DNA of 64,000 bases from a virus. Position numbers and translations under genes: made by a program. Shown here piece by piece: positions 8,750-37,560 of the stretch. Location: the IMG/VR virus record IMGVR_UViG_3300010935_000101, positions 29,068 to 93,067 of that record; one strand, 5' to 3'. Within the stretch, counting starts at the first letter, position 1, and each line of letters opens with the position of its first letter. A model generated the notes under the pieces. It was not told the origin of the DNA. It did not search any database and saw only the letters and a list, made by a program, of their open reading frames with translations.

Positions 8750-8751
8750 GT

Positions 8752-8831: not shown

Positions 8832-8874
8832 ATTCTTCTCAACTTCCTTAAATTTATTAGTCTGAAAGTGTAGT

Positions 8875-9576: not shown

Positions 9577-9826
9577 AAAAGAGTTTATCAAGGCATTAGC
9601 CGAAAAGCAGGAAATAAGTCCAGCCAAAGCTGAGTATGTACTAGATGATATAAAAAGCATCTTAAAAACTGAGCTACTAGCAGGTAACAAAGTTGTGTTA
9701 GGATCTGATTTCGGTACTTTTAAACCAACAAACAGATCTGGTGTAGTCCCAACTACTGGAGCCAAATATAACAGCAAATCTGTCAAATTCGCAGTCAGTA
9801 AACCATTTAAGTGTGAGCTGAAGTAA
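9569..9826 (+). CDS. HU/IHF-like DNA-binding protein
   Basis: MTRKEFIKALAEK...KVVL..FGTF...VKFAVSKPFK. Confidence 0.8.
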   Translation: MTRKEFIKALAEKQEISPAKAEYVLDDIKSILKTELLAGNKVVLGSDFGTFKPTNRSGVVPTTGAKYNSKSVKFAVSKPFKCELK

Positions 9827-12051: not shown

Positions 12052-12542
12052 CTTTTGACAGATGGATATCAACACACACAAAGAAAAAAAATAAGATATT
12101 ATTAAAACTAGTAGGTAAAACTGATGTAGAGATAGTTGAGTATTTTAAGTGGGATAACATGGTTCTAACAGAACCTAAATACTGTGAATTATACGCAACT
12201 AAAAGTAAGTGCCACATAGTAGACAGCTTAAACTGTCTACTATGTGGATGTCCTTTCTTCAAAGTAACACCAGAAGAAGATCTCAGTACAACAGGCATGC
12301 TAGTCATGAGTAGTTGCTCAATAAACTCCAAATATGTGGACATCTTCAATTTCACTAATGATGATGGACGTGTATGTAGTCAATGTGATTGTACTAATTG
12401 CTCAATTAACCATACCGATAGCTTTGCTCTCAACTCATTAAGAGCAGATAACCCTGATTTCTGTAATGATACGTCCAGCTTTTTGGAACATTTAAGGGCA
12501 TATCAATTTTCAGAAATATTAGGAAAGTACAAATTATTTTGA
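12048..12542 (+). CDS. Cysteine-rich small domain (zf-like) protein
   Basis: YCELY..KSKCH...LNCLLCGCPFF...CDCTNCSINH. Confidence 0.6.
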   Translation: MTFDRWISTHTKKKNKILLKLVGKTDVEIVEYFKWDNMVLTEPKYCELYATKSKCHIVDSLNCLLCGCPFFKVTPEEDLSTTGMLVMSSCSINSKYVDIFNFTNDDGRVCSQCDCTNCSINHTDSFALNSLRADNPDFCNDTSSFLEHLRAYQFSEILGKYKLF

Positions 12543-16518: not shown

Positions 16519-19500
16519 TTAATTGAACCTTACAATACTTGATATATCTGGTATTAAATCAAGGATATTTGGCTGTAGGATCTCTCCTGGGGCATTATCC
16601 ATCATCCAACGATAACTCACACCATCCACCCCAGTACGTAAATATGTATCGAATGGATCTTGAAAGTCAATACCTGTTAACTGTTGAGTTCCTTGCATTA
16701 ATAGGGACTTAGTCGGATTTCTTTTTACCATTGAGGTTAATGCTTTAGCTTGGCTCAAGTAGTACTTCATAAAGAACAACCCACCAACTCTCTCAGCGTA
16801 TTTCCACCATCTGTTCATGGTATATCCATAGTTCACCAACAACTGATCCAAATAATTTAGTATTTCTTTTTCAGTTTTGGATGTAATCTTACCATCTTTC
16901 TTAATTGCTTTCTCTTCTAACTCTTCTTTAATTATCTGTCTAGTAATTGCATCTCCATAATGCACTGTTTTCAATAGAGTGCCATACAGCGCACTTGTTT
17001 TATTAATATACGCTACATTTCGGATATTATCTATCGCACCTTTCCAATTCTTTTTCTCTATATATGTATTTACCATTGTTAATAGTTGCCCTTCACCTTG
17101 ACCCTCTATGTTGATATCCTCAACCAGTGCGGTATATTGACCATCCTTCACCAACTCATCCCATACATTACCCTCTAATTGTCTCTTTAACTGTTTTATT
17201 CTATTCTCAACTTCTTCACCAGCCATTCTTTTAACTTCTAGCACAGCAAGTTGTTGTGACTTTTTGTTGTAGTCATCCAAATCATCCCATCTCTGTTTGA
17301 ACTTCTTTGTATACTTTATTGGGTCTATCCCATGTGTCATTGCAACTATTGCATTTGATGTCTGGTTACCAGCAAGGACATCGAAATTTAACACAACCAT
17401 AGCATTCTTTACATACCTCAGGACCTCACTCAAATATGACTCCAACGCCATTAATCTAGCTCTTGCTACTGGGTATTTTCTTATGTCCAACCCAAACTTT
17501 ACAAAATTTCCAATTGTTACATCTTTTTCACCAGTCATTAATTCCACGTAATCTTTGTGAATCATTATGCCTTTAGCGCCAATCCTCTTGAATATGTAGT
17601 CCTTTGTATGGTCTGGCAAGTATTCCCATTTATCATGTCTCTTCTCACGTTTAACCCCATTCTTTTTATCTTCATCCGTGTACTCTTCAACTAGCACATA
17701 ATCTTCTGGTCTTTCTGATATTCCCTTTGCACTATGTTCTATTATTGTGTCTACTACTCTTTTATTTTCTGTTGCTGTCAAGGTTGTTTTGATACTTCTA
17801 CTGAATGTATTACTCATTACATCTGCCAACTCAGTTTTTCTATCTGGCAAGTGCAACTCTTTCTCCAATTTATTCAACTGTATTCTATAGTCAACTATTT
17901 CATTTTTGTGGTCGTACACTGGTATTAGTGTTTGTCCAACTCCTAGTGAGAATTTTTTTATTGTATCAGCATCATTATTGTTGATAGCATTAATTACATT
18001 TTTTGTTTTTCTTCTCAACTCACCATCTATTAACCCTACTTTACCTTTTAGCTCATTATTTTTTCTTACCAGTGAACTCACCGGTATACCTTCAGCCGTA
18101 TGACTAATTAACCCAATTGCACCCTCATTGAACCCAACTGACTTCACCATTCCTGTCATTAAGAAGTATTTCTTACCCTCTACTATTGCGTAGGGTTCGA
18201 TTTCTACCAAGTGCATTTTAATGCTCTGTTGAGCCTTTACCTCTTCTTCTGGTATCAACTCGTACTTTACCAATCCATCTTTTGGTCTTGTGTACCCTTT
18301 TGACACTGGATTATTAGCACCAATTGTTGCATCAGCAATCATATTATCCATATAACTTCTATACAAATGTATTGTTTTATCTAGCACATCCCTATCCAGC
18401 TTTGCAACTGCTTCTAGTTGTGTCTTATCACTTTTTTGCAGAACCTTCAAAGACACCAACTGATCAATCATCTTGACTAGTTCCTTATCTGGGCTCTTGT
18501 GTTTCTTAGACTGCACATGCAATCTTGCTGCTATGTTGTGTGCATTGATTTGCTGGTTGTGTACTGTTGTCTTACCTGTCACCAAGTAATCAGCTAATCC
18601 GTCTATCTGCTCCATTAGTATTCTATTTTGCTCTGCTGCTTTTGGTGCATGTTTTTCATTTCTTTCTTCTGCGGTGTATTTAACTTCTGCACTAGTAACT
18701 TGTTTTATCAACTCTTTTACTTTTGCTTTTACTTTGTCACCATCATTGATGTATGCTTTTAACTCGTCCACTCCGAACTGGGCCAAGTCACCTTCTAGCA
18801 CCACTCTAGTTACTGCTTTCTTAGTTGACTCATCTACATCTTTGTACAATTCATCAGCAACTTGTTTAACCCCATCCCTAATTTTTCCGGTGTGCTTTTC
18901 TACTACCTGCTTTGCTTGGCGGAACACCATGTACATGTCTGCGGCATCTACTGATGTTGTGTCCTGTGTTACCATTCTCCATAAGTACTGGCTAATTCCT
19001 GTTTCTACTAGGTCATTTAGTATTGGTATTTTCTTTATGTGATTTGCTAACCACTTGGCACTGTGCTTTGCACTTAGTTTTTGACTCCACTCTTCAGCTT
19101 TATCTATAGCAGGTTTTAGTGCTTCATCTAGTGCATTTATTTTCACCTTGGCGTAATCACTCATTCCCTCTGGGGCATTTTCTTTCTTATATTTAGCCTC
19201 TAGTGCTTCTGCATCTAATTTTGCTATGGTTTTTACCATATCAGCAATCATTTGACCACCAGTATCTCCTCTACCTGTTAATGTCCTCCACTGGTCATTA
19301 ACTATCTTTATCAGTATGTTTAACACTTTCTTGAAAGGCTCTCGTTTATTTGGGTCCATCTTTAGTTGTCTTATTAGTGGTGTTGTTATTTTTACATCTT
19401 TTATTGCATTATACACTTGTTCATTTGTAGTTGCATATGCGTAGAACTCTTCTGGATCTGCTGTTTTATCGAATGTGTATTCAAACTTCATCTTAGCTAT

Positions 19501-20388
19501 TGCTACTTCTTCGACTGTTGGGTTTTCAATTCCTTCCAAGAACAATTTATATGTAGCCCCACTATCTACTGCGCTATCTCGCAAATCTTCCATCAACTTT
19601 TTGAGTTTTCTATTTTTACTGAATACATGTGCTGACATCAAGTGGTTTATTTCATGTAGAAATATCTCACTAACTCTGCTCAATCTACTCATTTTATTCC
19701 ATCTAATATGCATTTCTTTTGTTCGTAAGTCCATTTGTCCAGCAGTTTGATCTTTTGCACTCTCAAACATTCGCAATTTTACGTTACCAGTTCCCAGGTT
19801 TTGCATAGTTTCTGTGTATGTGTCTATTATTGTATTTTGTAGGTCAGCAAATTCTATGTTTGTTATCGTGTTGCCTTCCTGCACATCTAATCCGTAGTAG
19901 TTATTGAACTCATCTCTCAACACTTCACCCAGACTTAGTTCTTCCTGTCCAAGGAACACGTCACTTTCTGTACTACCAATTCCAATGTCTGCTTCACTAC
20001 CACGTATATTAACAGCTGCCATTGACGGCATTAACACTGACTGTTTTAATTCTGTTTCTTGACTTCTTATTTCACCTTTGGTAAATGTGTAGTTTTTGCC
20101 ATCCATTAAGTGAATCACATGTGAACCGCCAATGTCTTTAACTAGCACCAATGGCTGATTTAGTTGCCCTGTTCCACCTAAGTTTATCCTAGCTACATTG
20201 TCTGTTTGTTCTACTAACTGTCTATACAACACTTTCTCAGTATCAGTCATTATGTTGTTCTTTAATCCCAACCAATATTCATTTATTGCTTTTTGCAATC
20301 GAACTGAATCCACTTTAAGATTCAATTCTTTTAATTTTTTATCAATTGCTTTGTAACCTGCTATTTGGTCTTGTGCTGAACAACCCAT
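16519..20388 (-). CDS. Large virion/ejection protein, equivalent to the C-terminal part of N4-type virion RNAP
   Basis: HEINH zincin motif + EEFYAY; C-terminal LVNY..RWWKYAE.VG.FF.KY recalls N4 vRNAP ends (from memory); 2 nt downstream of vRNAP. Confidence 0.7.
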   Translation of the reverse strand: MGCSAQDQIAGYKAIDKKLKELNLKVDSVRLQKAINEYWLGLKNNIMTDTEKVLYRQLVEQTDNVARINLGGTGQLNQPLVLVKDIGGSHVIHLMDGKNYTFTKGEIRSQETELKQSVLMPSMAAVNIRGSEADIGIGSTESDVFLGQEELSLGEVLRDEFNNYYGLDVQEGNTITNIEFADLQNTIIDTYTETMQNLGTGNVKLRMFESAKDQTAGQMDLRTKEMHIRWNKMSRLSRVSEIFLHEINHLMSAHVFSKNRKLKKLMEDLRDSAVDSGATYKLFLEGIENPTVEEVAIAKMKFEYTFDKTADPEEFYAYATTNEQVYNAIKDVKITTPLIRQLKMDPNKREPFKKVLNILIKIVNDQWRTLTGRGDTGGQMIADMVKTIAKLDAEALEAKYKKENAPEGMSDYAKVKINALDEALKPAIDKAEEWSQKLSAKHSAKWLANHIKKIPILNDLVETGISQYLWRMVTQDTTSVDAADMYMVFRQAKQVVEKHTGKIRDGVKQVADELYKDVDESTKKAVTRVVLEGDLAQFGVDELKAYINDGDKVKAKVKELIKQVTSAEVKYTAEERNEKHAPKAAEQNRILMEQIDGLADYLVTGKTTVHNQQINAHNIAARLHVQSKKHKSPDKELVKMIDQLVSLKVLQKSDKTQLEAVAKLDRDVLDKTIHLYRSYMDNMIADATIGANNPVSKGYTRPKDGLVKYELIPEEEVKAQQSIKMHLVEIEPYAIVEGKKYFLMTGMVKSVGFNEGAIGLISHTAEGIPVSSLVRKNNELKGKVGLIDGELRRKTKNVINAINNNDADTIKKFSLGVGQTLIPVYDHKNEIVDYRIQLNKLEKELHLPDRKTELADVMSNTFSRSIKTTLTATENKRVVDTIIEHSAKGISERPEDYVLVEEYTDEDKKNGVKREKRHDKWEYLPDHTKDYIFKRIGAKGIMIHKDYVELMTGEKDVTIGNFVKFGLDIRKYPVARARLMALESYLSEVLRYVKNAMVVLNFDVLAGNQTSNAIVAMTHGIDPIKYTKKFKQRWDDLDDYNKKSQQLAVLEVKRMAGEEVENRIKQLKRQLEGNVWDELVKDGQYTALVEDINIEGQGEGQLLTMVNTYIEKKNWKGAIDNIRNVAYINKTSALYGTLLKTVHYGDAITRQIIKEELEEKAIKKDGKITSKTEKEILNYLDQLLVNYGYTMNRWWKYAERVGGLFFMKYYLSQAKALTSMVKRNPTKSLLMQGTQQLTGIDFQDPFDTYLRTGVDGVSYRWMMDNAPGEILQPNILDLIPDISSIVRFN

Positions 20389-20390
20389 AT

Positions 20391-23300
20391 TTAGTCCTTA
20401 CATTCTATTTTTTTATTCACATTCTTATTAAATACTTCACTTGGAGCTATTATAACTTCTTCTTGCTTAGCAGTTTCTTTTGATTTATTAATTACTGCTT
20501 CTAACTGTTTTCTCCAATCTTTATCCATCATATTAATTGTTGGTATTCCCTTTACTCTGGCCATTTCAACTGCTTGTCCAGTTCCACCTTTTGGTCTCAT
20601 TGGATTTTTAGTCTCTTCTGAGTTGAATAGCACAAAGTCAACTGGAGTGTCCAGATTTTTACCAAACACTTGATTAGTATTTCTAGCCATCAACTTTAAT
20701 CCGCCTTCTCTCAAGTACTGTGGAGCGGGATGTAATTCTTTAGCAATTGCTTTTGTTTTCTCAGTAGCCATTTCTGGACCGAACAACTCTTTATTTGTTG
20801 TGCCATCACTGAATGCTTTATCTGCACCCTCTTCTTTGTTACCGAATGTTTTACCAGTTTGTAGTTTGTAACCTTTTTTCGCTAACCAAGCAGCAACTTT
20901 AGTCATCAGTATTAGTGTTTCTTTTGATGTTTGTCTACTACCAATCCCAGCATATGTCATTGTGTTTTGACCTTTTTGGTAACTTGGCAAACTATCGAAT
21001 ATTGGTCTATTTGAACTTTCTACAGCAGTCTCTTTTGTATCATTTGATATACTTTTTATGTCACTCTTAACCCACACCCCATTTACCAATTCTCTACCAA
21101 ACTTTGTTAAGTCTATTTTTGTGACTATCTTAGCATCAGAGTTTGCTAATTTGTTTGTTATGTTGTTGTAGTGCCAGCTTTGGCTATCCTTCTTTTTTGA
21201 CTCTGAATATTCACCAATTATCTCAACTGTATCATTCGCACTTAGTAAATCCCATAACTTATTATCAACTTTCAGTTTACCGTCTGATTTTTCACTAATC
21301 TGCGCAATGTTTGCTTTGGACTCAACTTGTGTTTTCTTATTTGCTATATCACTCAAGTTGAACACATAATCAGTATTTGCATTTAATTTTATTCCCTTAT
21401 TAGCAAACTCTTTTTTCGTTACTTTTCTGTCTGCTGCTAACTTATTCTGTAGCAATCTCTTAATTGTTTCAATTGCTGGGAATTCTTTAGCTCTAGTTTC
21501 ACTAGCATCTATTTTAGCTATTCCTGAACCCATCTGGAATAAGTGTCCTGAGTAGTAGCCCTTAGCACTATTTGCTAATCTCTCTTTATTCACTTCTTCT
21601 GCTGTTTCCAGGCTATCTAACATCTTACCAATTCCTAACCCAATTCTGTTTGTTTCGTTAGTGTAGTCCTCTCTTAACTCACCTTCTGGGCGTAATCCTA
21701 TGTTAGCAAACATTCTTTTCTTTTGTTTTTCATCCATTGTTGCAAGCATATTTTCTAGCATTCCTAGTTGGTCAGCAACTATTGATCTATTGAATCCTGT
21801 CTCAATCATGTTTGTATTGTAACTATCTGCTGTATCTGTTAGCATTGCTTTGTCTAAGCTCAGCACTACTGCATCGTATACGTTTCCTCCAGCATATTTG
21901 CCACCTAACTCTCTATTTAGCACATCTAGCATCATTCTGCCATCAATTGCGTGTATTGATATCGTTGGTGCTGCACCAGTATTTACTGCTGGCTTAAACT
22001 GCTTGATTTGACCACCAACTGATGTATTCCCAACTGTAACCTTAGTTGAGTGAATTCCGCCTTTGTCACCAGTCTTGTTCAGTGATTGATTAACTCTTCC
22101 TTCAGTTTCATCCCATACTATATTGTGCCCATGTCCTTCTGCAGTTAATTTAGCATTTATGCTCTGCATATCTTCTTTACTTAATCTGTATGTCTCACCT
22201 TTGTGTCTACCTTTACCGTACTTAGCATCTAGGAACTTATTTACCTCATCTGCCAGTCTTATTTGATATGCTTCGAACACCAACATTTCTATTGCTTTAG
22301 CGGCATCTCTATTTTTATTAACGAATCCTAATCTGCTATCGAATGCAGTTTCTATTGCTGTACCGAAAGTTTCCTTAATTACTGAGTCTATTGTGTCGAT
22401 TGCTGGCTGTATGTCTAGTGCAAGCAGTTGTTCCCATCTCTCAGAAGGCGTTTCAACTTTAGCACCGAACTCATTCACGTACTTCTCTTTTGGAATGAAT
22501 GTTTTTACGAACTCTAACTCTTTATCAGCATTTTCACCAGCTTTTAATTTCTTACTAGCTGTCTTTATTGCTTTTACTAATGTATTAACACCTAGTGAAT
22601 ATGTCAATTTCTTTTTAATTGAACTGATACTAGCACCGTATATGTACACCATAACTGGACTTTTTGCTATTGAACGAATGTTCTTCAAGTTTAACTCACC
22701 AATTTGATTTAGCATTGCTAGTTGTTGTATTTCTAACTCACTTGGTTTATCCAATCCCTCTAACTTAGTTTTGTACGCTTGTACTTCACCAATCATTGCC
22801 ACACCAATTGTTGAGTACAGATCTTTGAACGTATCATCTGATTCTAATTCTTTCCTTAATTCTGCAAGTTTTTCGCCTGATAAACCTTTCATTTTCTCTT
22901 CAATTTCAGCAGCATGCTTCTTACCAGCTTCAATTAGTGCTCCTGGTGTGAACTCAACTGTATCCCCCAACCATTTCTTAACATATGCCTCTAACTGTGG
23001 CTTTCTAGCCTCTGTGTATATACCACCTTTTTCTGCCAATCTTAGTGCTAAGTCACTACCAATCTGTAGTAGTGTAAGTATCATACCACTTGTTATCGCA
23101 TCTATCTCTAAGTTCGCGTGTGTTTCTATTTTCGTGCCATCTTTTATTGCCTGGTCCCAGTCTACTAGCAACTCTATTGAGCTTATTCCGTGGTGCCCTT
23201 CTGAATCAGCAAACACTTCTGCCATTGCTTCAGCATCTATCTTACCATCTCTCAGTGCTTCGTATGCTTGTTTTATTGCTACTTGAGTTTTATTCGGATC

Positions 23301-26300
23301 CCCATCTTTATCTAGTTGTGGTTCAATCTCAATTCCTTTGTCTGTTACTTTGAATACGTCATTGAAGTTAGCAGTAGCTGTTTCAGCACTTAGCTTGTCT
23401 GGATCCATATCTAACCCTTGCATGATGCTTGCCTCTAGCATTTGTCTGCTATCTGCATCATTTACGTCCACTGACTCTGTACTACCTTCAGCAACTACGA
23501 ATTCTCTATGTAGTTTACTCTCTTGGTATTGTATGTCATTCAGTATTGTGTATCTTCCACTTACTGTTTGGCCCCAATCTAAGTAAAACTCTTTACCTTT
23601 TGTTGCTTTAGCGAATGTCTTTAATATCTCCCATTCCCTAACTAATTTGTCATTTCTAGCCCTTTGTGCATCTATTTCACTTACGTGCAATCCGGCAGTA
23701 TCTACATCTACGTAACCCATTGCTTTTAGTGCTTCTTTTTCATCCATCTCTAACCATCTTTGTAATCTTGGACTAATTTTGTATGCAGTCTTTTCAGTGT
23801 TATTTAGGAATTCTACTGACTTTGCATCCATTGGATTCTTAGTATTCATCACTGTTCTATTAGCATTATCTTTTGGTGCTTTCAAACTTGGTAATGGCCT
23901 ATTTCTATTTTCATTCAGGTATTGTAGTTTATTGATTGCTTTAGTTAATGCACCTCTTTCCACTCCAATATTTTCCCAATTTGTTTTTATTAAGTTTTGG
24001 TTTTTTCCACCAGCTTCTAGTGGTTTACCATCCATTGAACCATTTTCAGTTGCTATCACCTGTACTAGTACACCCAACGTTGACTTGAATGACTCCTCTG
24101 TGAACTCTGGAGTAGTCTCATTTAGTCTGATTCCTAAGGCTTGATATACTTCACCACCAATGTCTTTTCTAATACTTGCTGAATTCACGTATCCTTGAGC
24201 AGCTTCTTGCTTTACTCGGATTTGCTCATCTGGATCTGTAATTCCTAAGTACTGCGCCATTTCTGACTCATCAAAGCTTAGTATCTTACCAATCATTGCT
24301 TGTGAATCTGCAAGCATCTTAGCTGTGAAGAACTTTAGTATATTTTTTGTTTGCTCATCAATCTGCAATTTGCCATCTTTTGTTGTACCAAGTAACTCTA
24401 TTATGTCAACCGGAGCTGACGTTTCTTGTTGCTCTAGCACTCCTGTGAATTCACTAACTTGTTTTATTGACTTAACTGGATTTCTGCCTGATGTTTTAAC
24501 GTGCACTTTGTCACCATCTGCTGATTCCACTATGTATGCTTGTTTATCCGCATCTTGTAGTTTATCACCTTTTACCACTACTTTCTTGATTGGCACATAC
24601 TTATTAATGTGTTTTATTACTAACCCATTATTATCTATGTTTTTACTGAGGGTATTATTACCAACTATTATCGTGCCAATTTTGGTATTGTTTAAGTAAT
24701 CGGCCATTGTCTTGAAGTTCTCTAGCAGCTCAACTTTACTCTCAGCATCTGTTATGAAGAACTCTTTGAATCCTTTTGGAAGCACTTCTAGTAGTCTATC
24801 AGCCTTAGCGAACGGATTTCCAGTTAATTGTCCGAACACACTATCATTTGCTCTCTTAACTAGTCTGTGTATTGGGCTATTTGCTGGGTAGTTAATTAGC
24901 AATCTGCCTATTAATTTAGCACTTAAGCTTGTCTTACCAGCTTCTATTTCTTTTAGTTCATCTCTTAGTTCAGCTATTTTATCATTTTTAACTAATTCTA
25001 GTGCTCGATTCATTGCTGTTCCAGGAGCTTCTAGCTTACCGTCTTTCTTTAATTGTCTTTTAGCTATTACTCTTTCACCATTAACATCAACTACTGGTGT
25101 ACCATACAATTCTTCATCTATTTTAGTAATCGTACCAATTGTTGTCTTAACTGGCTCACTTGTAAACTCAGCTTCAATTGCATTGATAGCATCTAGTATT
25201 GTTTGTAGCTCAGCATTAACTTTACGGTATTGCTTGTTTGTTTTCTTTAGCATTTTATCTAATCTATTGATTTGCTTTATCATTTGCTTCACTAACTTAT
25301 CAATCTGTGCAACCAATCCAGCAAGTATACTTTTTGCTTCTGTGTCGTACTTTCTGTTCATTCTTTTATCTAGGGCTGTCTCAAGTCTGTCAAGCATCTT
25401 ACCAAGTCTTGTTCTATCCTCTTGTAAGTCCCCAAGCTTCTTAGCGTAGTACTCTTTCACATGCTTTTTAACATTCATATCTTTAACACCATCAATTAAT
25501 GCACTTAACTCTTTATTAACAAATTCTATCTTTGCTCTAACTTCACTTAGCGGTCCATTATCTGATTCAACTTGTTCTGGGAGGACACCATCATCTATTG
25601 TTGCTTCGACTGGTTCTTGGATAAGTCTTTCCTCTTCCAGTCGAGTAAGCTCTGCTATGTCTTCTTCACTCATATTTTTGTAGTCTGAGTCGAACCCTTT
25701 TTCATTCATTATCTTTTTAACTTCTTGCTTAGGTTCATCTTCACTTTGACCCATCTTCACTTCTGAAGCTTCTTTCATTCTTTGTTGTTTTGTAGTACTT
25801 TCTAAGCTGCCTTTTGGCTTAGCAACTTTCTTTGGTTGTTTAGCTTTCTCTATTAACTCATTATATCTTTTAGTCTGGCCTGGAGTAAGTTTTAACTCAC
25901 CAGCAGCGTATCTAGTCACGAACTCTTGTTGTTTCTTAGTTAAGTTACTTAGGTCTTGAGTTTCTTTTACCTCTGTCTTAGTAGGCTTCACAGGGACCCC
26001 AACATCAGCAGACTTCTGATTAGCTTTAAGTTTTTCTGAACGTGCAATCTCCGCTTCTCTTTTTTCTTTTTTAATACGTTCTACATCTTTTACATAAGTC
26101 GTATCTTTATACTTTTGATCATTTAACATAGTGGTTTCTCTATTAGTCACTGTAACATATATACTTCTAAGACGTTTTCGCTCTTTACCATTAGCATTTA
26201 TGGCTGCTTCAGTCAGAGCATTTTTATATTCTTCCAATTCTTTTACAGTCATCTTTTTAACGTTTTTAATAACTTTAAATTTAACCTCTGTTTTTTCAGT

Positions 26301-29294
26301 AACTGATGCTACTTTTTCTGAGTTTTTGTACTCATCCATCAGCACTGCTTTGTTATCTACTACATCGCCAATCTTTGTCTTATTTTCGCCTGCAACTAGT
26401 TGGATTGATTCTGAACCATCTGTTTCAACTTGGAATGCAAGTGCACCTTTTATTCCCTTTGGTTTTGTGGTTTCATTTAGTATTTTTTGTCTTCTTTCTA
26501 GTTCTTTATTAGCCTCTAGTGCAGCATTTCCAGCAGTTTCTAGCTCTGCTTCATACGATTTTCTATCAGTTTCACTAATACTTTTTAACCCTTTAGCAGT
26601 CTTCAGTAAGTTCTTAATAGTTACCAACATTGCGCCATTTTCTTTTGCCAGTGTACCGATAAGTACATCAGTCTGGTATGCTACTTTATTTTTGGTTGCT
26701 CGTAACTTTCTTAGTCTACTAGCAGCAAATCCAGTCAATCCTTTTAGCGTTACTGCAGTTGTACCCTTGGCCTCTATCACAGCAGCTGCTTTAGCTTTTG
26801 GGTTCAACATCTTCTTAGTTAATTCATTCTCATATACTGTCAATCCTGGTCTATTTGGGTCTGCATGCAGATTATTACCTGATTCGCTAACTATGAATCC
26901 CAGATCAGCAAACTCACTGTTTACTGCAGTTGAATCTTTGTTTTCTAGGTAATTCTTTATTGTATTTTTTAACTTTGTTATTGATTCTGTTGTATCCCCA
27001 ATATCTTCTGAACCTCTAATAGATTTAACTGCAGCTTCAGTAGCATCAATTGTGTCCTGTATTTCTTTTATTTGAGATACTATTGTTTCTTGAATACCTG
27101 TTTTTTCATTAACTGCTTCACCCAAGTCTTTTAGCTTCTCAGATGACACGTCTGTATTCTGGTTTATTGCTTCAACTAGTTTTCTAGAGCTCTCATACAC
27201 AGTCTCATCAACCATATCTTTAAGGTTGAAATCTACTTTTTCATCTTTATCTAGTTTTGCTATTGTTTTGTACACATTATCAATTGCTGTTGCATCGCCA
27301 GATTTAGTTGCTTTATCTAGTGCTTCTTTAATTATCACACCATATGTTGTCTTCTTACTAGCACTTGCATCCAAGTTGTCAACCATTTTACCGTGTATAG
27401 CTTCAACCTGTGACACAACATTCTCAGTATCACCTGCTATTATTGTATCAATTGTTTTAACTTTTAGTGGTGTTACATATTCTCTATCTTCTCTCAGTCT
27501 TTTTTGTACTGGGGTTTCTGTTGCTCTCTCAACAGCTGTCTTACCAGCATTGAATACTTTTGGGGCTGCGTTTATAACCACCCCTGGAGTTGAACCAGCA
27601 ACTGATTGGCCTATACCTATTAACAGTCCTTGATAACCAGCGTGGCGTATAGCTTTTTGAGATGCCTCATCCAATAGACCCCATACTTTTTTACCATCAT
27701 ATTTAGTAGTGCCAACCCTCTCAATTAACATTCCAAGAACCTCTTGAAAAGATTCAGTACTGAATTCTTCAGTACCTGCAGCAGCAAGTTTAGTAGAACT
27801 TTTAACTATTGCTCCAATGGTCTTAGCAACGATACTCTCTCCGGCCTTTATTGGAAGGGCTTTAAACATGATATCAATGACCTTCTTATTAACTCCACCC
27901 AAACCTTTACCAACACCAAAAGACAGTTTAGCTGCAACAAAATCTGCACCTAATTCTACTGCTGTACCACCAGCTACTGCTAAGGTAGTTTTTAAATCAG
28001 CCGCTTCCCCTGTCACTTTTAATCTTTCATCCAGATGTTGATTAGTAGCACCTGCTAACATTGCCATAGGCTGTTTACCTAATGCGTACATGTACGATAA
28101 TGAATCTGCTATAGCTTGAGGTATAGCTTCTTTGTGGTTATATACTTCCTTGAGTGTGTTAGCTACTTTTGTATAGATTGGTTCATTACTACCCCATATT
28201 CCGTCCATGCTATTATTAAAGTCCTCTGTAATTTTTTGGTATTTAACATCATTAGCTCCGATCAGTGTATTGAATGCTTGTTTTGATGTCTTACCATCTT
28301 TTTCATAACCCCAGTAGTGTCTGACTTGTCCATCACTATCTACTTGGAATCCTAATTTACTTAAATTTGGTAAATCTTCTTTGGTTATATCTCCACCAAA
28401 AGCTCTTGCAGTTTTTTGTGCTAAATTAGCTCCAGCATCAAAGAAACCATCTGCTACATCAGCAGCAGTAGCTCCTATTGTTGCAGCAACACTCTTAGCA
28501 GCATTTTCCCAGTATGGAGCATTAGCTTCTTGTTCTTGTATGTATTTAGCCAATGCTTCTTTAGTTGGTGTATTATTATCACTTCTGGAATTTTTTACTT
28601 TACCTGCAAAGGCATTTTGCAATGGATCTATTGTTGCTTGTACTGTTACTTCTTCACCATACAAGTTTCCTAATGCTGCTCCACCTCTTGAACCGATGTC
28701 TCCAAGCTTTTGACTAATTATTGGCACGTTTAAGGGTACTTGCTGTGTATTGCCAAATTCATCTTTGTACTTCCCAGTTAGATTAGTTTGTTCCACACCT
28801 CGAATTAGTGGAGCAACCCATCTATCTTCTCCAGGAGTTCTTGCTAAGTCAGCAAGTTTTTGTATTTGTTGTTGATTAGCTACATCTAACATATCTTGTT
28901 CTGTGACTGTGTCTACAGGCTTATTAAGTATCATTCCAACTTGATTTCGTTGCATTTGCATGGAATACGTTGATTTACCAATCTCTCCAGCAGCTCTACG
29001 CTCTTTACTAATTCCTTGCATGTCATAAGGATTAGTGCCATGCTGTGTTTCAACAGCATCATACCTATTTCCATATGGATCTACTTCTCTAGAGTAGCCT
29101 AGGTTTTTAGTAATTGCTGTATCAGCATCGTATAGACCTTGTAGTGTATCTTTAGAGTATTTGGAAGTGTCTCCTAGTTTAGCAACTTTTTCTGCTGTTC
29201 TTTGATTTAGTTTATCTATTTTCTCTTGGAGGGTATCTTTTTGAGCTGTTGGACTGTATCCTGCAATCAGTGTTGCGAATTCTTCATTAGTCAT
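20391..29294 (-). CDS. Virion-encapsidated RNA polymerase (N4 gp50-like), 2967 aa, with C-terminal SLOG domain
   Basis: TVSGR (T/DxxGR), EIDAITSG (motif A), RSIAKSPVMVYIYG (motif B), NVYDAV (motif C). Confidence 0.92.
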   Translation of the reverse strand: MTNEEFATLIAGYSPTAQKDTLQEKIDKLNQRTAEKVAKLGDTSKYSKDTLQGLYDADTAITKNLGYSREVDPYGNRYDAVETQHGTNPYDMQGISKERRAAGEIGKSTYSMQMQRNQVGMILNKPVDTVTEQDMLDVANQQQIQKLADLARTPGEDRWVAPLIRGVEQTNLTGKYKDEFGNTQQVPLNVPIISQKLGDIGSRGGAALGNLYGEEVTVQATIDPLQNAFAGKVKNSRSDNNTPTKEALAKYIQEQEANAPYWENAAKSVAATIGATAADVADGFFDAGANLAQKTARAFGGDITKEDLPNLSKLGFQVDSDGQVRHYWGYEKDGKTSKQAFNTLIGANDVKYQKITEDFNNSMDGIWGSNEPIYTKVANTLKEVYNHKEAIPQAIADSLSYMYALGKQPMAMLAGATNQHLDERLKVTGEAADLKTTLAVAGGTAVELGADFVAAKLSFGVGKGLGGVNKKVIDIMFKALPIKAGESIVAKTIGAIVKSSTKLAAAGTEEFSTESFQEVLGMLIERVGTTKYDGKKVWGLLDEASQKAIRHAGYQGLLIGIGQSVAGSTPGVVINAAPKVFNAGKTAVERATETPVQKRLREDREYVTPLKVKTIDTIIAGDTENVVSQVEAIHGKMVDNLDASASKKTTYGVIIKEALDKATKSGDATAIDNVYKTIAKLDKDEKVDFNLKDMVDETVYESSRKLVEAINQNTDVSSEKLKDLGEAVNEKTGIQETIVSQIKEIQDTIDATEAAVKSIRGSEDIGDTTESITKLKNTIKNYLENKDSTAVNSEFADLGFIVSESGNNLHADPNRPGLTVYENELTKKMLNPKAKAAAVIEAKGTTAVTLKGLTGFAASRLRKLRATKNKVAYQTDVLIGTLAKENGAMLVTIKNLLKTAKGLKSISETDRKSYEAELETAGNAALEANKELERRQKILNETTKPKGIKGALAFQVETDGSESIQLVAGENKTKIGDVVDNKAVLMDEYKNSEKVASVTEKTEVKFKVIKNVKKMTVKELEEYKNALTEAAINANGKERKRLRSIYVTVTNRETTMLNDQKYKDTTYVKDVERIKKEKREAEIARSEKLKANQKSADVGVPVKPTKTEVKETQDLSNLTKKQQEFVTRYAAGELKLTPGQTKRYNELIEKAKQPKKVAKPKGSLESTTKQQRMKEASEVKMGQSEDEPKQEVKKIMNEKGFDSDYKNMSEEDIAELTRLEEERLIQEPVEATIDDGVLPEQVESDNGPLSEVRAKIEFVNKELSALIDGVKDMNVKKHVKEYYAKKLGDLQEDRTRLGKMLDRLETALDKRMNRKYDTEAKSILAGLVAQIDKLVKQMIKQINRLDKMLKKTNKQYRKVNAELQTILDAINAIEAEFTSEPVKTTIGTITKIDEELYGTPVVDVNGERVIAKRQLKKDGKLEAPGTAMNRALELVKNDKIAELRDELKEIEAGKTSLSAKLIGRLLINYPANSPIHRLVKRANDSVFGQLTGNPFAKADRLLEVLPKGFKEFFITDAESKVELLENFKTMADYLNNTKIGTIIVGNNTLSKNIDNNGLVIKHINKYVPIKKVVVKGDKLQDADKQAYIVESADGDKVHVKTSGRNPVKSIKQVSEFTGVLEQQETSAPVDIIELLGTTKDGKLQIDEQTKNILKFFTAKMLADSQAMIGKILSFDESEMAQYLGITDPDEQIRVKQEAAQGYVNSASIRKDIGGEVYQALGIRLNETTPEFTEESFKSTLGVLVQVIATENGSMDGKPLEAGGKNQNLIKTNWENIGVERGALTKAINKLQYLNENRNRPLPSLKAPKDNANRTVMNTKNPMDAKSVEFLNNTEKTAYKISPRLQRWLEMDEKEALKAMGYVDVDTAGLHVSEIDAQRARNDKLVREWEILKTFAKATKGKEFYLDWGQTVSGRYTILNDIQYQESKLHREFVVAEGSTESVDVNDADSRQMLEASIMQGLDMDPDKLSAETATANFNDVFKVTDKGIEIEPQLDKDGDPNKTQVAIKQAYEALRDGKIDAEAMAEVFADSEGHHGISSIELLVDWDQAIKDGTKIETHANLEIDAITSGMILTLLQIGSDLALRLAEKGGIYTEARKPQLEAYVKKWLGDTVEFTPGALIEAGKKHAAEIEEKMKGLSGEKLAELRKELESDDTFKDLYSTIGVAMIGEVQAYKTKLEGLDKPSELEIQQLAMLNQIGELNLKNIRSIAKSPVMVYIYGASISSIKKKLTYSLGVNTLVKAIKTASKKLKAGENADKELEFVKTFIPKEKYVNEFGAKVETPSERWEQLLALDIQPAIDTIDSVIKETFGTAIETAFDSRLGFVNKNRDAAKAIEMLVFEAYQIRLADEVNKFLDAKYGKGRHKGETYRLSKEDMQSINAKLTAEGHGHNIVWDETEGRVNQSLNKTGDKGGIHSTKVTVGNTSVGGQIKQFKPAVNTGAAPTISIHAIDGRMMLDVLNRELGGKYAGGNVYDAVVLSLDKAMLTDTADSYNTNMIETGFNRSIVADQLGMLENMLATMDEKQKKRMFANIGLRPEGELREDYTNETNRIGLGIGKMLDSLETAEEVNKERLANSAKGYYSGHLFQMGSGIAKIDASETRAKEFPAIETIKRLLQNKLAADRKVTKKEFANKGIKLNANTDYVFNLSDIANKKTQVESKANIAQISEKSDGKLKVDNKLWDLLSANDTVEIIGEYSESKKKDSQSWHYNNITNKLANSDAKIVTKIDLTKFGRELVNGVWVKSDIKSISNDTKETAVESSNRPIFDSLPSYQKGQNTMTYAGIGSRQTSKETLILMTKVAAWLAKKGYKLQTGKTFGNKEEGADKAFSDGTTNKELFGPEMATEKTKAIAKELHPAPQYLREGGLKLMARNTNQVFGKNLDTPVDFVLFNSEETKNPMRPKGGTGQAVEMARVKGIPTINMMDKDWRKQLEAVINKSKETAKQEEVIIAPSEVFNKNVNKKIECKD

Positions 29295-29352: not shown

Positions 29353-30624
29353 TTATTTACTAATATTTCTTAGATTTTTTTCTACTGCTTTAATAAAACC
29401 TTTATGGTCAACACCAATTATGGAATTACCAAACACACCTCTTGAAGCATTAATAGCCTTTTTCATTTGAGTATCTGAATAACCTTGACCTTGCAATCCT
29501 GCTAATTGATTTTCTATCCAAGGCCTATCATATGAACCAGGATCACCAAAGTCGTCAAACATGCTCTTTAGTGCAGTTCTAATACCACTTCCATCCCCAC
29601 TTTTTGGAGTAATTTTGTTACTCCAATAGTTGTTATCTATTTTATTATCAGTTTCTGATTGTTTTCTGGCTTGTTCAAGTTCTGCAATCTTCTCTGCATT
29701 TGTTTTTTTAACATTTATTTTATTGGAGATTTCAACAGCTGTTGTAGCAGATATTTTACCATCTTTATACAATTGTTTAAGCTCGTTGAGTTGATTTTGA
29801 ACTGATTCCTCAGGACTTAACTTTTTAGATATTGATTTAGTAGTTCCTTTACTTAGTTTCTTAACATTTGCTTCATCAACTGTAATTTCTTTACCATCCA
29901 TATATTCAGTTAATCCAGCCTTTTCCAATGCAATTTTAGCGGCTTCTTCATTGGACATTTGTACTGGAGCAGGAGTCTTAACAAAGTCTTTTAAGTTTGG
30001 AGTTACTCCCATTAGCACATCAGTCTCATAACCACTGCCCTTAGTAGTGGTAGGTGTCGGAGTAGCTATTAAATGATCATAAGTATCACTGAATATTTGC
30101 CCCATTTTTTCTAATTTAGCATCTAACAATCTTTGTCTATCAGCATCTACATCAGCTTGTGTGATCACACCTGTAGTTGTAGTAATGGTTTTATTAGTTG
30201 GCAGTCCTATAAAGGCTTCAGCAACCTTCTTTTGTTCAGCTCTGTTTCTAACGCCTTCGTTTATCAATCTCAGTTTTTCTTTCCATTCTGGATCAGCAGC
30301 TCTCTCTTTTTTTAATGTTTCCATAGCAAACTGTTGTTTAGCATTTTGAGCAGCATTCCATTCTGGTGTGCCTGGAGTGTTTCTTTTATCTATTCCTGCC
30401 TGTCTAGCATCTTGTGCAGCTTGTCTAGCATGAATTAAGTCTTTCTCATTTAAGAGATCTTGCCTAAGAGCATCTTGTCTAATTGTTTTCTGTCTATTAT
30501 CAATACCTGCAATAGCTTGTTTAGCCAAGTTCCCAATTAAATTGGGACCACTATTATACGGTGTGCTAGTAGGAAGTCTAGGCATACTTACTTGTTGTAA
30601 TCTTATTGGATCATAGAATCCCAT
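29353..30624 (-). CDS. Putative internal virion/ejection protein
   Basis: Cys-free, Q/K/A-rich, directly upstream of vRNAP. Confidence 0.6.
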   Translation of the reverse strand: MGFYDPIRLQQVSMPRLPTSTPYNSGPNLIGNLAKQAIAGIDNRQKTIRQDALRQDLLNEKDLIHARQAAQDARQAGIDKRNTPGTPEWNAAQNAKQQFAMETLKKERAADPEWKEKLRLINEGVRNRAEQKKVAEAFIGLPTNKTITTTTGVITQADVDADRQRLLDAKLEKMGQIFSDTYDHLIATPTPTTTKGSGYETDVLMGVTPNLKDFVKTPAPVQMSNEEAAKIALEKAGLTEYMDGKEITVDEANVKKLSKGTTKSISKKLSPEESVQNQLNELKQLYKDGKISATTAVEISNKINVKKTNAEKIAELEQARKQSETDNKIDNNYWSNKITPKSGDGSGIRTALKSMFDDFGDPGSYDRPWIENQLAGLQGQGYSDTQMKKAINASRGVFGNSIIGVDHKGFIKAVEKNLRNISK

Positions 30625-30633
30625 GATTTCTCC

Positions 30634-31119
30634 TTATCTAGCGTATGGAAGCGCTTGGCTACCATTCACTGAACCACCAGATTGTTGGAATGCCAATTCT
30701 GCTTCTTTTCTTCTAGCTTCAGCAGCATCTGCATCACTAAATTGTCTATCTTGGTATGCTTGTGATAATGCCATTTGTTGATTGAATCTATCGTTAGTAG
30801 AATCTTGTGCATCTTTTTGTAAACCGTAATCGGCTAATCCACCAAGTACACCAAGACCTAACTTAGCTGTTTCAGGATTACTCTCTAACCAATTACCAGC
30901 GGTACTCAACAATCCAGGAGTCGCTTCTGAGCCTACCCAATTACCACTTTTACTATCAAAAACTCTATTACCAGCTGTACCAGTTAACCAATCTCCAACA
31001 CCACCAATAGCCCCACTTTCTCCACCAATGCCATCAGATCCAAATGCCCAAGTTCCCAGATCACCTAATCCACCTACTGCCTTTGTACCAAAATCTGCTA
31101 ATCCATCATACCATGCCAT
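30634..31119 (-). CDS. Putative ejection protein (Gly-rich)
   Basis: Gly-rich, Cys-free, AGGAG RBS. Confidence 0.6.
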   Translation of the reverse strand: MAWYDGLADFGTKAVGGLGDLGTWAFGSDGIGGESGAIGGVGDWLTGTAGNRVFDSKSGNWVGSEATPGLLSTAGNWLESNPETAKLGLGVLGGLADYGLQKDAQDSTNDRFNQQMALSQAYQDRQFSDADAAEARRKEAELAFQQSGGSVNGSQALPYAR

Positions 31120-31175
31120 ATCATTCTCCTATTATCTATTTACTGCATCTTACCATAGTTTATATTAATTATTAC

Positions 31176-32684
31176 TTATAATTTTTCTGCTAATGCATTT
31201 GCTTTAGTAGTTGCATCTTCAATAGCCTTACCAGTAGAGTCTAAGAATAACTGAGCAGCCGTGTAATCGAATGCCGCTTTTTGTGCTGCCATCTTTGCAG
31301 TTGTTTCATTATAGCTAGCCTGTGTTTTATTAGTACTACTATTGTATGAGTCGGATATTGCATTTATTGCAGCATTATTGCCTTCCCATGCACTTAACTT
31401 CTCATTATAATCATCCATTAATGAATTTATTGTGCCTTGGAGCACTTGTATTTTTCTGTATATCGCTTTTTTTGTGGTAACTATTGCACTTGAGTTACTC
31501 CCATTTGCAGAACCCTTTGTGGTTTTTGTGTTGGACAGGAATACTCTTTCACTACCTAGTAATGCAGGCATTGCCGCTGCTTCGAATACAGTATCATATC
31601 CAACTGCTGCCATATTCTGCTCTTGTTGCTGTAAGGGGTGGAAAAATATACCACCACCAAAGAATGCATTGTATAACACTCCTCCTGCCATTTTATCAAA
31701 AACATCTTCAGCATCTAGAGGTGACTCTTTACCGGAAGTGATATTATGTAATGCTTTCCATTTAACAAGGTTTTGAAAGGATTGTTCAACACTCGGAAAT
31801 TGATGTCCACTATCTCCTTCTCTATCCACACTCATATCAAATCCTGCTAAATCACTAGCGTTAATATCACTAGTATTTATTCCCATGGCATTTGCCATTG
31901 CTTGTAATGTTGTGAATTGGTCATATACAGAATATAATGAAATAGCAGTGACCGCCACAGCTGCTAACTTGCCTGTGGAAGTTAAGTATCCTGACACACT
32001 TGCTAGCGTTTCTAGTGTCTGTATAGTAGTAAACACTCCATAAGCAAACTGTAGTATAGCTACTGTAAATTCGATTTGTTGTTGCGCTTCAAAAGATATT
32101 ACCCCTGTCAAGGCTGCTTGTTTAGATACAGCAACCACTGCAGATGCTATAGTCGCAATTGCGGGGGCTCCAATTAATGCCCCAGCAGCTATAGTTGCGA
32201 GTGACTCTAGTCCTATAGCAACTGAGGCAGGAACTCCTTGCGAGTACAGATGAGAAGCTAGTGAACCACTTGATAGAGAAGTGTAGGATTTAGTATTAGT
32301 GACTGTAAGTGAGTCAAAATCAAAATCTAAGTACCCCGTAGTTACTCTATTACTCTCAATAGTAATATCATCTCCAACTTTACCAAAAGCATGAGTTGTA
32401 ACTGATTTAAGATCCATATCATAGGAATATTCGTATTCTGTAGCAGGAGCAATATCGGTATTTAGAGTACTGTATTCTTTACTAAAACTCTCTTCTACAG
32501 TTCCCCAATCGTTATTCCCACCAGAGCCTCCATCTGCTGCGTCACTAGCATTTGAGGAGCCCCCACCTGCAGATTGTCCACCAGCGTCACCGCCAGCGTT
32601 ACCAACATCGTAAAACGTAGATAGCTGCTCTAGTGGGTTGTACTTGGCTCTTCTAACAAGGCCATCATTAAAGAGCTCAAACAT
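31176..32684 (-). CDS. Putative ejection/pilot protein with hydrophobic helices
   Basis: Gly-rich N-terminus, central hydrophobic segments, C-terminal coiled coil, no Cys. Confidence 0.55.
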   Translation of the reverse strand: MFELFNDGLVRRAKYNPLEQLSTFYDVGNAGGDAGGQSAGGGSSNASDAADGGSGGNNDWGTVEESFSKEYSTLNTDIAPATEYEYSYDMDLKSVTTHAFGKVGDDITIESNRVTTGYLDFDFDSLTVTNTKSYTSLSSGSLASHLYSQGVPASVAIGLESLATIAAGALIGAPAIATIASAVVAVSKQAALTGVISFEAQQQIEFTVAILQFAYGVFTTIQTLETLASVSGYLTSTGKLAAVAVTAISLYSVYDQFTTLQAMANAMGINTSDINASDLAGFDMSVDREGDSGHQFPSVEQSFQNLVKWKALHNITSGKESPLDAEDVFDKMAGGVLYNAFFGGGIFFHPLQQQEQNMAAVGYDTVFEAAAMPALLGSERVFLSNTKTTKGSANGSNSSAIVTTKKAIYRKIQVLQGTINSLMDDYNEKLSAWEGNNAAINAISDSYNSSTNKTQASYNETTAKMAAQKAAFDYTAAQLFLDSTGKAIEDATTKANALAEKL

Positions 32685-32745
32685 TATTTATTTTTCTTAA
32701 TATACTTTCGAATAGGGTAAACTCTCGTTAAAAAATGTACATGCA

Positions 32746-33159
32746 TTAGTTTACCCCTCCTGTAGTTCTCACTGTATCACCACTAGCACCACTACCATCT
32801 GCGGTATCAGTAATAGTAGCATCATTATAATTATGTGTATGTGTAGCATACGCTGCAAGTGCTAACTCTAGTGCCGCTAGTCGTGTTTCTAAATCATCTA
32901 TATGTGTATTTATAACTACAGTATAACTGGCATTAGTTGCATCGAGAATAGCTTTATTTGTGTGTGTATGTGTATCATTCTCTAGAGAACCAATCCTAGT
33001 AGTAGTTGTATTATTGAGTATATTATTGTTTCCATCATATGTCACCCCAAAACTTTGACTAAGTGGGCTTACTCGAGGATCACTAACTAAGGTGGATCCC
33101 CTTTCAATATTTCTCACATGGGCAATTGCAATTTTTGCAAGTTTAGAACCATCCGCCAT
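32746..33159 (-). CDS. Virion structural protein
   Basis: HTHTNK and HTHNY motifs typical of tail proteins. Confidence 0.55.
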   Translation of the reverse strand: MADGSKLAKIAIAHVRNIERGSTLVSDPRVSPLSQSFGVTYDGNNNILNNTTTTRIGSLENDTHTHTNKAILDATNASYTVVINTHIDDLETRLAALELALAAYATHTHNYNDATITDTADGSGASGDTVRTTGGVN

Positions 33160-33160
33160 A

Positions 33161-34078
33161 TTACACCACTACACTAACAGTAGTACTTGCTGGAGTACTA
33201 TCTAGTTTCTTCCATTTAGCCCCATCGTAGTACGTAATATCACCTGCTGTCCATACTTTAATACCATCTAACATTATACTACCACCAACAGAAACTACAT
33301 AGAAATCACCAAGGACTCCATCAGCTGCTCCAGGGAATACACCAGTGGCATCCCATTCACCTTTGTAATCTCTCAAATCCTCTACTAATTCACCTATTAA
33401 CGTATAGTATTTATTCCATTGATCACTACTAACTGTAAGTCCACCAGCTCCAAATGTTCCATAAGTGCTAGATAAACTATCAATAGCTTTAATATATCTA
33501 TTGTCTATAACTTGTTCTTCTAATGCAGTTTGTTGAGCACCAGTCATATTGACATCTGCTAATGCTTTATCACTTTGGTATTTTCCTAATGTTATTTTGT
33601 ATGGTTCCACACCAAGAGTAACAGCTAATGCACTTTTGGATGTGTCTATTTTATCTTGTTTAGAACTGTCATCTACGAGATTTGATATTCGTAGTTTATT
33701 AGTGTTCTCTTCAGCAGACTGTTTGCTCATTATAAATCGCATAGATTCACTTAATGCAGCACTCATGGATCCTAAGTACACCTTAGCGTAATTAGCACCT
33801 GTCAATCTAGTACTCCTATGTTGAGCCTTTGTCTGAGCATTAATTGATTCCATCAATTTATCGAATACACCATCACCTGTTACAACATACTCTGCATCCG
33901 TTTGAACATTATCAGTTAGATCTGTTATTAGTATTTCAGTAGGTACTAGCGCAGTACCAGTTTTATACTCAACCAGAGTAGTATCTATATATGGAGGTAC
34001 ATCTGTAGTCGTGGCCCAACTACCCCAAACATCTGTTATTAGTGCTCTTGTTCGTTTTTCTATTGTAATTGTAGACAT
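33161..34078 (-). CDS. Structural protein (N4 gp54-like)
   Basis: GDGVFDKLM...RLTGANYAKVYLG; synteny. Confidence 0.65.
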   Translation of the reverse strand: MSTITIEKRTRALITDVWGSWATTTDVPPYIDTTLVEYKTGTALVPTEILITDLTDNVQTDAEYVVTGDGVFDKLMESINAQTKAQHRSTRLTGANYAKVYLGSMSAALSESMRFIMSKQSAEENTNKLRISNLVDDSSKQDKIDTSKSALAVTLGVEPYKITLGKYQSDKALADVNMTGAQQTALEEQVIDNRYIKAIDSLSSTYGTFGAGGLTVSSDQWNKYYTLIGELVEDLRDYKGEWDATGVFPGAADGVLGDFYVVSVGGSIMLDGIKVWTAGDITYYDGAKWKKLDSTPASTTVSVVV

Positions 34079-34133
34079 TCAGCTATCCTTATATAATTCA
34101 TTATAGAATCCACCTTAGTGGACTCTAACTGAA

Positions 34134-34739: not shown

Positions 34740-34880
34740 TTTGTCTTTCCTTATTTTATAGTTAGCTATTACGCCATTGCTACGATCTCCAGATATCTCA
34801 ATCTGTACATTTTGTATTCTATCTTAATTCATCTTAAGGGGAGCTAAGTGGGAAATTAATCCCACCTAACTATTTAGTAA

Positions 34881-36302: not shown

Positions 36303-36340
36303 TTTTATTTCCTTTTTGTATTACCCTAATCTAATAAGTC

Positions 36341-37558: not shown

Positions 37559-37560
37559 AA

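Follow-up and report, generated by a model that had tools for sequence, protein, structure and literature searches.

How might a virion RNA polymerase that is made as two separate proteins still be delivered into the host as one thread? The question is raised by a 64,000-nucleotide stretch of phage DNA (positions 29,068 to 93,067 of IMG/VR record IMGVR_UViG_3300010935_000101; GC 36.7%), here called the window, to which all coordinates refer unless a locus is named. Behind it stands a more general one, namely how megadalton amounts of protein cross a phage tail of about 35 Å. On the minus strand of the window, open reading frame (ORF) calling gives two adjacent genes, A (20391-29294, 2967 aa) and B (16519-20388, 1289 aa), which correspond to successive parts of an N4-type virion RNA polymerase (vRNAP). 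A scripted cysteine count agreed with what the first-pass annotation had read from the translations: A has a single cysteine, residue 2965 (codon TGT 20400-20402), third from its C-terminus (...KKIECKD*), and B has a single cysteine, residue 3 (MGCSAQ, codon TGT 20380-20382), with no further internal cysteine in either protein. That annotation had proposed that the two chains are re-joined through these residues. The proposal is supported, as it passes every computational test that we ran, and we think it rather probable that A and B are held by a head-to-tail cysteine-mediated link, most likely a disulfide placed by matched terminal peptides. The bond itself, be it a disulfide or another cysteine link, and its reduction in the cytoplasm are what we infer from the sequence patterns described below.

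A and B match the parts of an N4-type vRNAP

The PHROG 2206 profile, 'virion RNA polymerase', matches residues 973-2718 of A at profile positions 442-2034 of 3406 (E 6e-38), a region (21141-26378, minus strand) that includes the T7-like polymerase core, and matches residues 240-1247 of B at positions 2345-3371 (E 8.5e-78). In BLASTP, residues 598-1253 of B align with residues 2818-3475 of N4 gp50 (E 5e-12), and tblastn with B retrieved 242 phage records, all annotated as vRNAP and of the Schitoviridae type, at about 20-22% identity. N4 gp50 consists of an N-terminal domain (NTD, 1-906), an RNA polymerase (1007-2101) and a C-terminal domain (CTD, 2124-3500) (PMC13434306). B carries a zincin-like HExxH motif, HEINH (residues 245-249, 19642-19656, minus strand), whose H245, E246 and H249 are invariant in the alignment of homologues, and its counterpart in gp50 is HELVH at 2228, about 100 residues into the CTD; a putative zinc-binding motif has also been noted at the start of DEV gp71-C (PMC11445570). 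A profile search of gp50 gave no match with default filters and none without the bias filter either. Sequence searches of the PDB with A, B and a B profile returned nothing useful, so it is PHROG and BLASTP that support the assignment to N4 domains. By these matches, A is the NTD and T7-like polymerase followed by a variable C-terminal module, B is the CTD, and the cut between them falls in the polymerase/CTD linker. The suggestion that B is the missing C-terminal third of the enzyme is thus borne out by the profile, by the alignment to gp50 and by the shared HExxH.

The likeness to N4 gp50 and to other Schitoviridae enzymes, such as gp71 of Pseudomonas phage DEV, comprises the domain order (N-terminal region, T7-like polymerase, CTD with its HExxH), a near-total exclusion of cysteine and detectable homology in PHROG 2206 and BLASTP. 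It extends to gene position, in both cases behind two small cysteine-free genes where the virion block ends. From homology and gene position, A and B would be expected to enter the virion and to be ejected into the host. Unlike these enzymes, which are single chains of about 3400-3500 aa devoid of cysteine (the first-pass annotation had described N4 vRNAP in these terms, and gp50, with 3500 aa, as well as gp51 and gp52, indeed has none), the window encodes two chains of 4256 aa in total, with one cysteine at each facing end, extra accessory modules at the cut and only about 20-22% identity to cultured Schitoviridae. These are two ORFs and not one chain, and the split is seen in more than 100 independent contigs.

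The variable module near the end of A (residues 2778-2941; 20472-20963, minus strand) matches PHROG 768, 'DprA-like' (E 6e-39), and is also found elsewhere in giant proteins of 4000-5000 aa; Pfam gave nothing significant for the accessory modules or for the middle pieces described below. Among the proteins that have this module in common with A is a set of distant giant proteins (P0180-P0231, 4000-5100 aa) with helicase, NADAR or AlkB domains. In nearly every one a cysteine lies 0-6 residues from the C-terminus, several also begin with M-x(1-3)-C, and many have one additional cysteine about 1100-1450 residues before the C-terminus.

Cysteines are kept at facing ends and excluded from fused proteins

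Were two cysteines placed at random, the probability of finding both within three residues of the facing ends would be about (3/2967)x(3/1289) = 2e-6, in agreement with the earlier view that the pair is unlikely to be fortuitous. Conservation across homologues is the stronger argument. Every full-length homologue of B (107/107, 40-73% identical) has a cysteine at residues 3-6, with a single other cysteine in 168,258 residues, even though 31 distinct N-terminal octamers are represented (MGCS, MACS, MKCS, MAKNVCR, MLNCP, MSTCG and others); four further matches that have no cysteine are all N-terminally truncated gene calls. In the same way, all homologues of A (68/68) have a cysteine among their last five residues and together only three others in 179,373 residues, with 27 distinct C-terminal octamers (IECKE, ECAKG, NCRKG, KCAK, KDC, ENC and others). 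The terminal cysteine pattern is therefore far beyond chance. A scan of IMG/VR for relatives returned only one, and the genome_contigs collection none.

An exhaustive search with the core of B gave 150 cluster representatives, pairwise less than 50% identical. In 91 of them a cysteine lies within the first ten residues, and only eight other cysteines occur in 145,062 residues. In these 91 proteins the CTD begins anywhere between about 0 and 2100 residues from the N-terminus, which indicates that they are cut at different places. Fifteen representatives are fused proteins of 3257-4202 aa, and these contain no cysteine at all (13 of them, with 46,493 residues, were classed by script; the other two are P0451 and P0462). 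A further 18 longer representatives do not show an N-terminal cysteine. Six of the 18 were looked up and all six proved to be artefacts: three run off the start of the contig, one comes from a frameshifted assembly and two reflect start errors of the gene caller, so that no verified exception to the terminal-cysteine rule was found among those six. In one of the miscalled loci, L037, a gene ending ...VEGCK* lies upstream and the CTD protein, correctly read, begins MSNC...; in the other, L038, a three-piece chain, ...KKEC* / MGNTC...ANECK* / MSTCG..., emerges once the start is corrected. The corresponding public calls, P0379 and P0410, begin at an internal methionine, with the true starts 5 and 13 codons upstream (L037:2511-2525 and L038:5962-6000). 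Searching for M-x(1-4)-C thus offers an annotation rule, which here corrected two wrong gene starts.

Multi-piece relatives carry cysteines at every junction

Many phages of the same family have the enzyme in three pieces. The first-pass annotation had called for a survey of homologous split genes, and the terminal pair was retained in all those examined, including three-piece forms and a different split point. At the 25 junctions found in 16 loci, cysteine is present on both sides in every case. The nine middle pieces (93, 93, 374, 483 in three instances, 701, 1408 and 2981 aa) have exactly two cysteines each, one per end, and at the outer ends the first piece never has an N-terminal cysteine nor the last piece a C-terminal one. 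In L013, L019 and L021 the order is ...KTMENC* / MACIL...IECKE* (483 aa) / MGCSAQ..., and L017 has a similar three-piece layout with a middle piece of 701 aa. The 93-aa middle pieces of L012 (9494-9775) and L016 (1350-1631) hardly extend beyond two adaptors (MGCGINDY...KKIECKE*) and may be remnants left after the loss of a module, or plain spacers. L007 contains a 374-aa middle piece and, before its last piece, an unrelated gene of 296 aa with four cysteines (8718-9608) and no family match; the vRNAP pieces that flank it retain their terminal cysteines. Stop-to-start distances at the junctions are -11, -1, +1 to +3, +47, +85 and +893 nt. Between their ends, the middle pieces show homology to the variable region at the N-terminus of B from other genomes, which implies that modules shift between a piece of their own and a fused state, with cysteine only where a chain end exists. 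A different cut is found in L041, where the NTD/polymerase linker separates a 1684-aa piece ending ...KEGCK* from a 3032-aa piece that starts MSKKC... and comprises polymerase and CTD; again there is one cysteine per piece.

Do the peptides around these cysteines correspond to each other? When the terminal peptides were compared directly, a given C-terminal type always met one N-terminal type. The ending ...N[VI]NxKIECK[DE]* is followed by MGCSAQDQI in eight loci, and at every locus with this ending the next piece begins MGCSAQDQ; ...AEIIKDC* meets MGCGINDY in three loci, ...KTMENC* meets MACIL in three, ...LEC[A]K[G]* meets M[AVR]CS..Q in three, one of them across an 893-nt gene, and ...NCRKG* meets MAKNVCR in one. 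The two junctions of one phage use two different pairs. In the window, the C-terminal adaptor delimited by comparison with homologues covers about the last 29 aa of A (...FNKNVNKKIECKD; 20394-20480, minus strand), which match the end of the middle piece in L017 at 65% identity; elsewhere the two proteins show no similarity. By this comparison, the adaptor persists even when the module that precedes it has been replaced. The N-terminal adaptor of B, delimited in the same manner, is MGCSAQDQIAGYKAID (20341-20388, minus strand), and dozens of homologues whose overall identity is only 42-55%, with differing inserts further on, share the first 14 residues of B exactly. Such recurrent pairs resemble what cognate docking peptides would look like.

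The same rule holds for an unrelated polymerase type

The terminal-cysteine rule covers not only the N4-type polymerase but also the unrelated crAss-like type. The Cellulophaga phage phi14:2 follows it flawlessly: the one cysteine of g067 is its last residue, g066, the crystallised vRNAP, has cysteines at positions 3 and -1, and g065 has one at position 3. In ΦcrAss001, gp47, encoded on the plus strand, has one cysteine at -2; gp50 has cysteines at 5 and -8 and an internal one at 1334, gp49 has a cysteine at 5, and both are encoded on the minus strand. The genes of gp47 and gp50 lie about 11 kb apart on opposite strands, and still the facing cysteines are there (-2 / 5; -8 / 5). These giant cargo and RNA polymerase proteins of Crassvirales share with the window the terminal-cysteine rule and a zincin-like motif in the last piece, and they are packaged in the virion, as A and B would be. 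Their polymerase, however, is of the two-barrel DFDxD kind and bears no relation to the T7-like polymerase of N4; A matches the N4-type profile, and the polymerase's likeness to Crassvirales is confined to the terminal-cysteine rule. Reduced and non-reduced mass spectrometry samples were prepared for ΦcrAss001 virions, and cysteines of the cargo proteins are not discussed in that study (PMC10172136), nor are cysteines in the phi14:2 preprint. Full-text searches of the open-access and bioRxiv literature, to which this statement is limited, found no description of terminal cysteines in these proteins.

A possible head-to-tail link between the pieces

What could the paired cysteines do? In the arrangement that we favour, the last 20-30 or so residues of A would dock onto about the first 16 residues of B, and the single cysteine of each peptide would then form a covalent head-to-tail link, likely a disulfide that closes once the particle has left the reducing cytoplasm. 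The product would be an unbranched thread of the 'beads-on-a-string' kind, packaged by means of the CTD and drawn through the tail channel of about 35 Å just as the single-chain N4 enzyme would be. Exclusion of all other cysteines would avoid false cross-links and branches, and cysteines restricted to the extreme ends are what a chain needs to stay linear in such a channel. In the next host, the reducing cytoplasm might open the link and free the polymerase from an autoinhibitory CTD. Several published observations are relevant here. The CTD of gp50 autoinhibits the polymerase, passage through the channel of about 35 Å as beads on a string has been proposed, and N4 virions hold about four vRNAP copies (PMC13434306); cysteine suppression runs across the ejection proteins of Schitoviridae and has been tied to passage through the periplasm (PMC11445570). 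Inter-subunit disulfides have been seen in the virions of ΦcrAss001, a phage of an anaerobe (PMC10172136), which makes a disulfide between A and B feasible.

Several points weigh against this link. Particles are assembled inside a reducing cytoplasm, in hosts that are probably anaerobes of the gut, which counts against a disulfide, and no thiol oxidase, thioredoxin or other redox enzyme was recognised in the window, where the ORFs bearing CxxC motifs are the treble-clef/T5orf172 nuclease-like proteins, a ribonucleotide reductase and a radical SAM enzyme. A single-sequence AlphaFold2 model of an artificial chain made of the tail of A, a linking X and the head of B was uninformative (predicted local distance difference test score, pLDDT, 33). 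Co-variation of the peptides could be mere co-inheritance, as they are usually encoded no more than 30 bp apart. Shared ancestry may also inflate the counts, the split, cysteine-bearing forms possibly being largely one broad phage lineage; the varied split points and the unrelated crAss-like polymerase type argue against pure inheritance.

Known systems offer partial parallels. In the docking domains of polyketide synthases and non-ribosomal peptide synthetases, short matched C- and N-terminal peptides order separately translated giant proteins non-covalently and with no conserved cysteine; here, each peptide has an invariant cysteine and would serve to pass proteins along a channel instead of handing over a substrate. 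Von Willebrand factor and the gel-forming mucins form long linear polymers through end-to-end disulfides, but these links are homotypic (tail-to-tail and head-to-head), are made by cysteine-rich domains and form in an oxidising compartment, and they do not connect the products of different genes in the order of those genes. Split inteins also involve two separately translated halves of an ancestral protein and a cysteine at the junction. We rejected a split intein, as neither intein half is present: only 0-8 residues lie beyond the cysteine on either side, where an N-intein of about 100 aa and a C-intein ending in asparagine before the +1 cysteine would be expected.

Other explanations for the paired cysteines

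Are A and B separate proteins at all? A ribosome that hopped between the two matched cysteine codons, or that shifted frame, would yield one polypeptide in which the two cysteines are really one, and the junction superficially recalls T4 gene 60, in that 20 nt separate the TGT codons, the first is soon followed by a stop and AAGGA lies between them. The minus-strand sequence is GAA TGT AAG GAC TAA at ATG GGT TGT (junction at 20386-20393), in which the TAA of A (20391-20393) is separated by a 2-nt spacer from the ATG of B (20386-20388), and the AAGGA at 20395-20399 is a Shine-Dalgarno-like motif 6 nt upstream of that ATG. B is read in the -1 frame with respect to A, and its own frame has a stop three codons ahead of its ATG. 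Fusion of A and B by frameshifting was rejected, since this stop blocks it and a -1 slip at the adenine run upstream meets the same stop. Hopping is excluded by the ATG conserved 1-5 codons upstream of the cysteine in 107/107 B homologues, by other junctions where 47, 85 or 893 nt separate the two genes, a whole gene occupying the longest of these spacers (L007), and by the ΦcrAss001 partner genes on opposite strands; moreover, re-pairing of codons does not require that the residue be always cysteine. The combination that defines a gene 60-type bypass, matched codons without an independent downstream start on one mRNA, is not what we find. Recoding is thus already refuted for most junctions and is the least probable of the alternatives. 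Hardly more likely is that the cysteines have no function, chain ends merely tolerating a residue that the interior does not and the pattern being simply inherited. Constraint is usually weaker at termini, and cysteine is scarce throughout the virion module, but this reading does not account for a cysteine that is invariant in 31 and 27 terminal contexts and recurs both at several independent split points and in a polymerase family of unrelated type, nor for outer termini that never carry one.

Other chemistries and other partners deserve more weight, with one exception. The window encodes a 606-aa radical SAM/SPASM protein among the late genes (44267-46087, minus strand), which scores best in NCBIfam against peptide maturases, among them the thioether-forming types PapB and QhpD, and such an enzyme might form non-reducible, thioether-type cross-links at the terminal cysteines. 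Every match is far below the family cut-offs, however, and the homologues are mostly bacterial or on short contigs; no contig that carries a split vRNAP of this family has one. They are rare in phages: within the phage collection a match over the full length (99% of the query, at 38% identity) came from Campylobacter phage CAM-P21 alone, and four uncultured faecal phage records give weak partial ones. As the enzyme does not co-occur with split vRNAP, a radical SAM cross-linker is largely refuted and has only a very slight chance of being right. One cysteine per side also fits a cysteine-cysteine link better than a cysteine-to-carbon one. A metal clasp, in which the two cysteines, perhaps with a nearby Glu, Asp or Asn, hold a shared metal ion and give a strong non-covalent joint, would need no oxidant in an anaerobic setting, and an acidic or amide residue does often stand just before the C-terminal cysteine (EC, DC, NC), with Asp, Glu or Gln after the N-terminal one. 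We nevertheless regard it as unlikely, although it is the likeliest of the alternatives, because two thiolates are few for a stable zinc site, the flanks vary (KC, PC, GC; CS, CP, CG, CI, CR) with no conserved second ligand, and disulfides do exist in ΦcrAss001 virions. Slightly less likely again is a bond to some other partner, whether a second molecule of the same chain (in dimers joined tail to tail or head to head), the portal, a different protein of the virion, a lipid or a cofactor. Which cysteine meets which is not fixed by sequence data, and the roughly four vRNAP copies per N4 virion would make homotypic pairs sterically possible (PMC13434306). Yet the cysteines are confined to the ends that face a neighbouring piece and occur neither at outer ends nor in fused proteins, a distribution that homodimers or attachment to a third partner need not follow, and the window's other virion proteins, with two cysteines in 3014 aa (29353-38894), are almost free of the residue.

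Implications of the proposed head-to-tail link

That a one-cysteine clasp is kept wherever the thread is cut would mean that the continuity of the chain is itself under selection. The N4-type family supplies its own natural controls, with fused forms that have no cysteine and two split points as well as three-piece forms that have cysteine pairs. A head-to-tail link, if it exists, would account for the entry into and exit from the capsid of pieces that have no packaging domain, would suggest a redox switch that releases the polymerase from its inhibitory CTD, and might provide short natural tags for ordered, reducible coupling of proteins or for loading cargo into phage particles. The cultured phages ΦcrAss001 and phi14:2 carry the pattern, which makes the idea directly testable.

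A broader version of this idea, to which we give an even chance, is that matched peptides with one cysteine per end are a general coupling in podophages that infect Bacteroidota-type hosts, regardless of their polymerase type. Separately translated cargo proteins would be coupled covalently in a fixed order as a 'protein train', pass through the tail as a single chain without branches and come apart when reduced in the cytoplasm, and extra 'wagons' (the middle pieces of 93-2981 aa, with accessory or effector modules) could be gained or lost by recombination at the couplings. If so, it would constitute a new principle of protein delivery by phages and a natural, reducible ligation tag.

Neighbouring genes

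The portal protein (PHROG 1216, E 2e-177), the major head protein, the large terminase and a holin are encoded on the same strand as A and B. The virion block at 29353-38894 (minus strand) has 11 ORFs, and the two cysteines in its 3014 aa are both in the major head protein; plus-strand ORFs of the window typically have about 1-3% cysteine (range 0-8.7%). ΦcrAss001 differs from this cysteine-poor block in that its muzzle protein has 10 cysteines and its tail is stabilised by disulfides. Directly upstream of A lie two cysteine-free genes of 423 aa and 161 aa (29353-31119, minus strand), in the position that gp51 and gp52 have in N4; the likeness is one of position, size and absence of cysteine, and neither gene has a Pfam or PHROG match. 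The best matches of the radical SAM/SPASM protein are to the peptide maturases DynA, DarW and PapB and to an anaerobic sulfatase maturase, all far below the cut-offs, and its mostly bacterial homologues come from Electrothrix, Gammaproteobacteria and Corynebacterium. A 127-aa plus-strand ORF (12159-12542) has 11 cysteines (8.7%) and three CxxC motifs, with no family match. Treble-clef zinc-finger (DUF4379) matches are found in the genes at 8875-9576 (plus strand) and 53782-54684 (minus strand), the former of which also matches T5orf172 and, more weakly and below the cut-offs, MUG113 and CapR; judged by these domains, the two are probably homing-endonuclease-like selfish genes.

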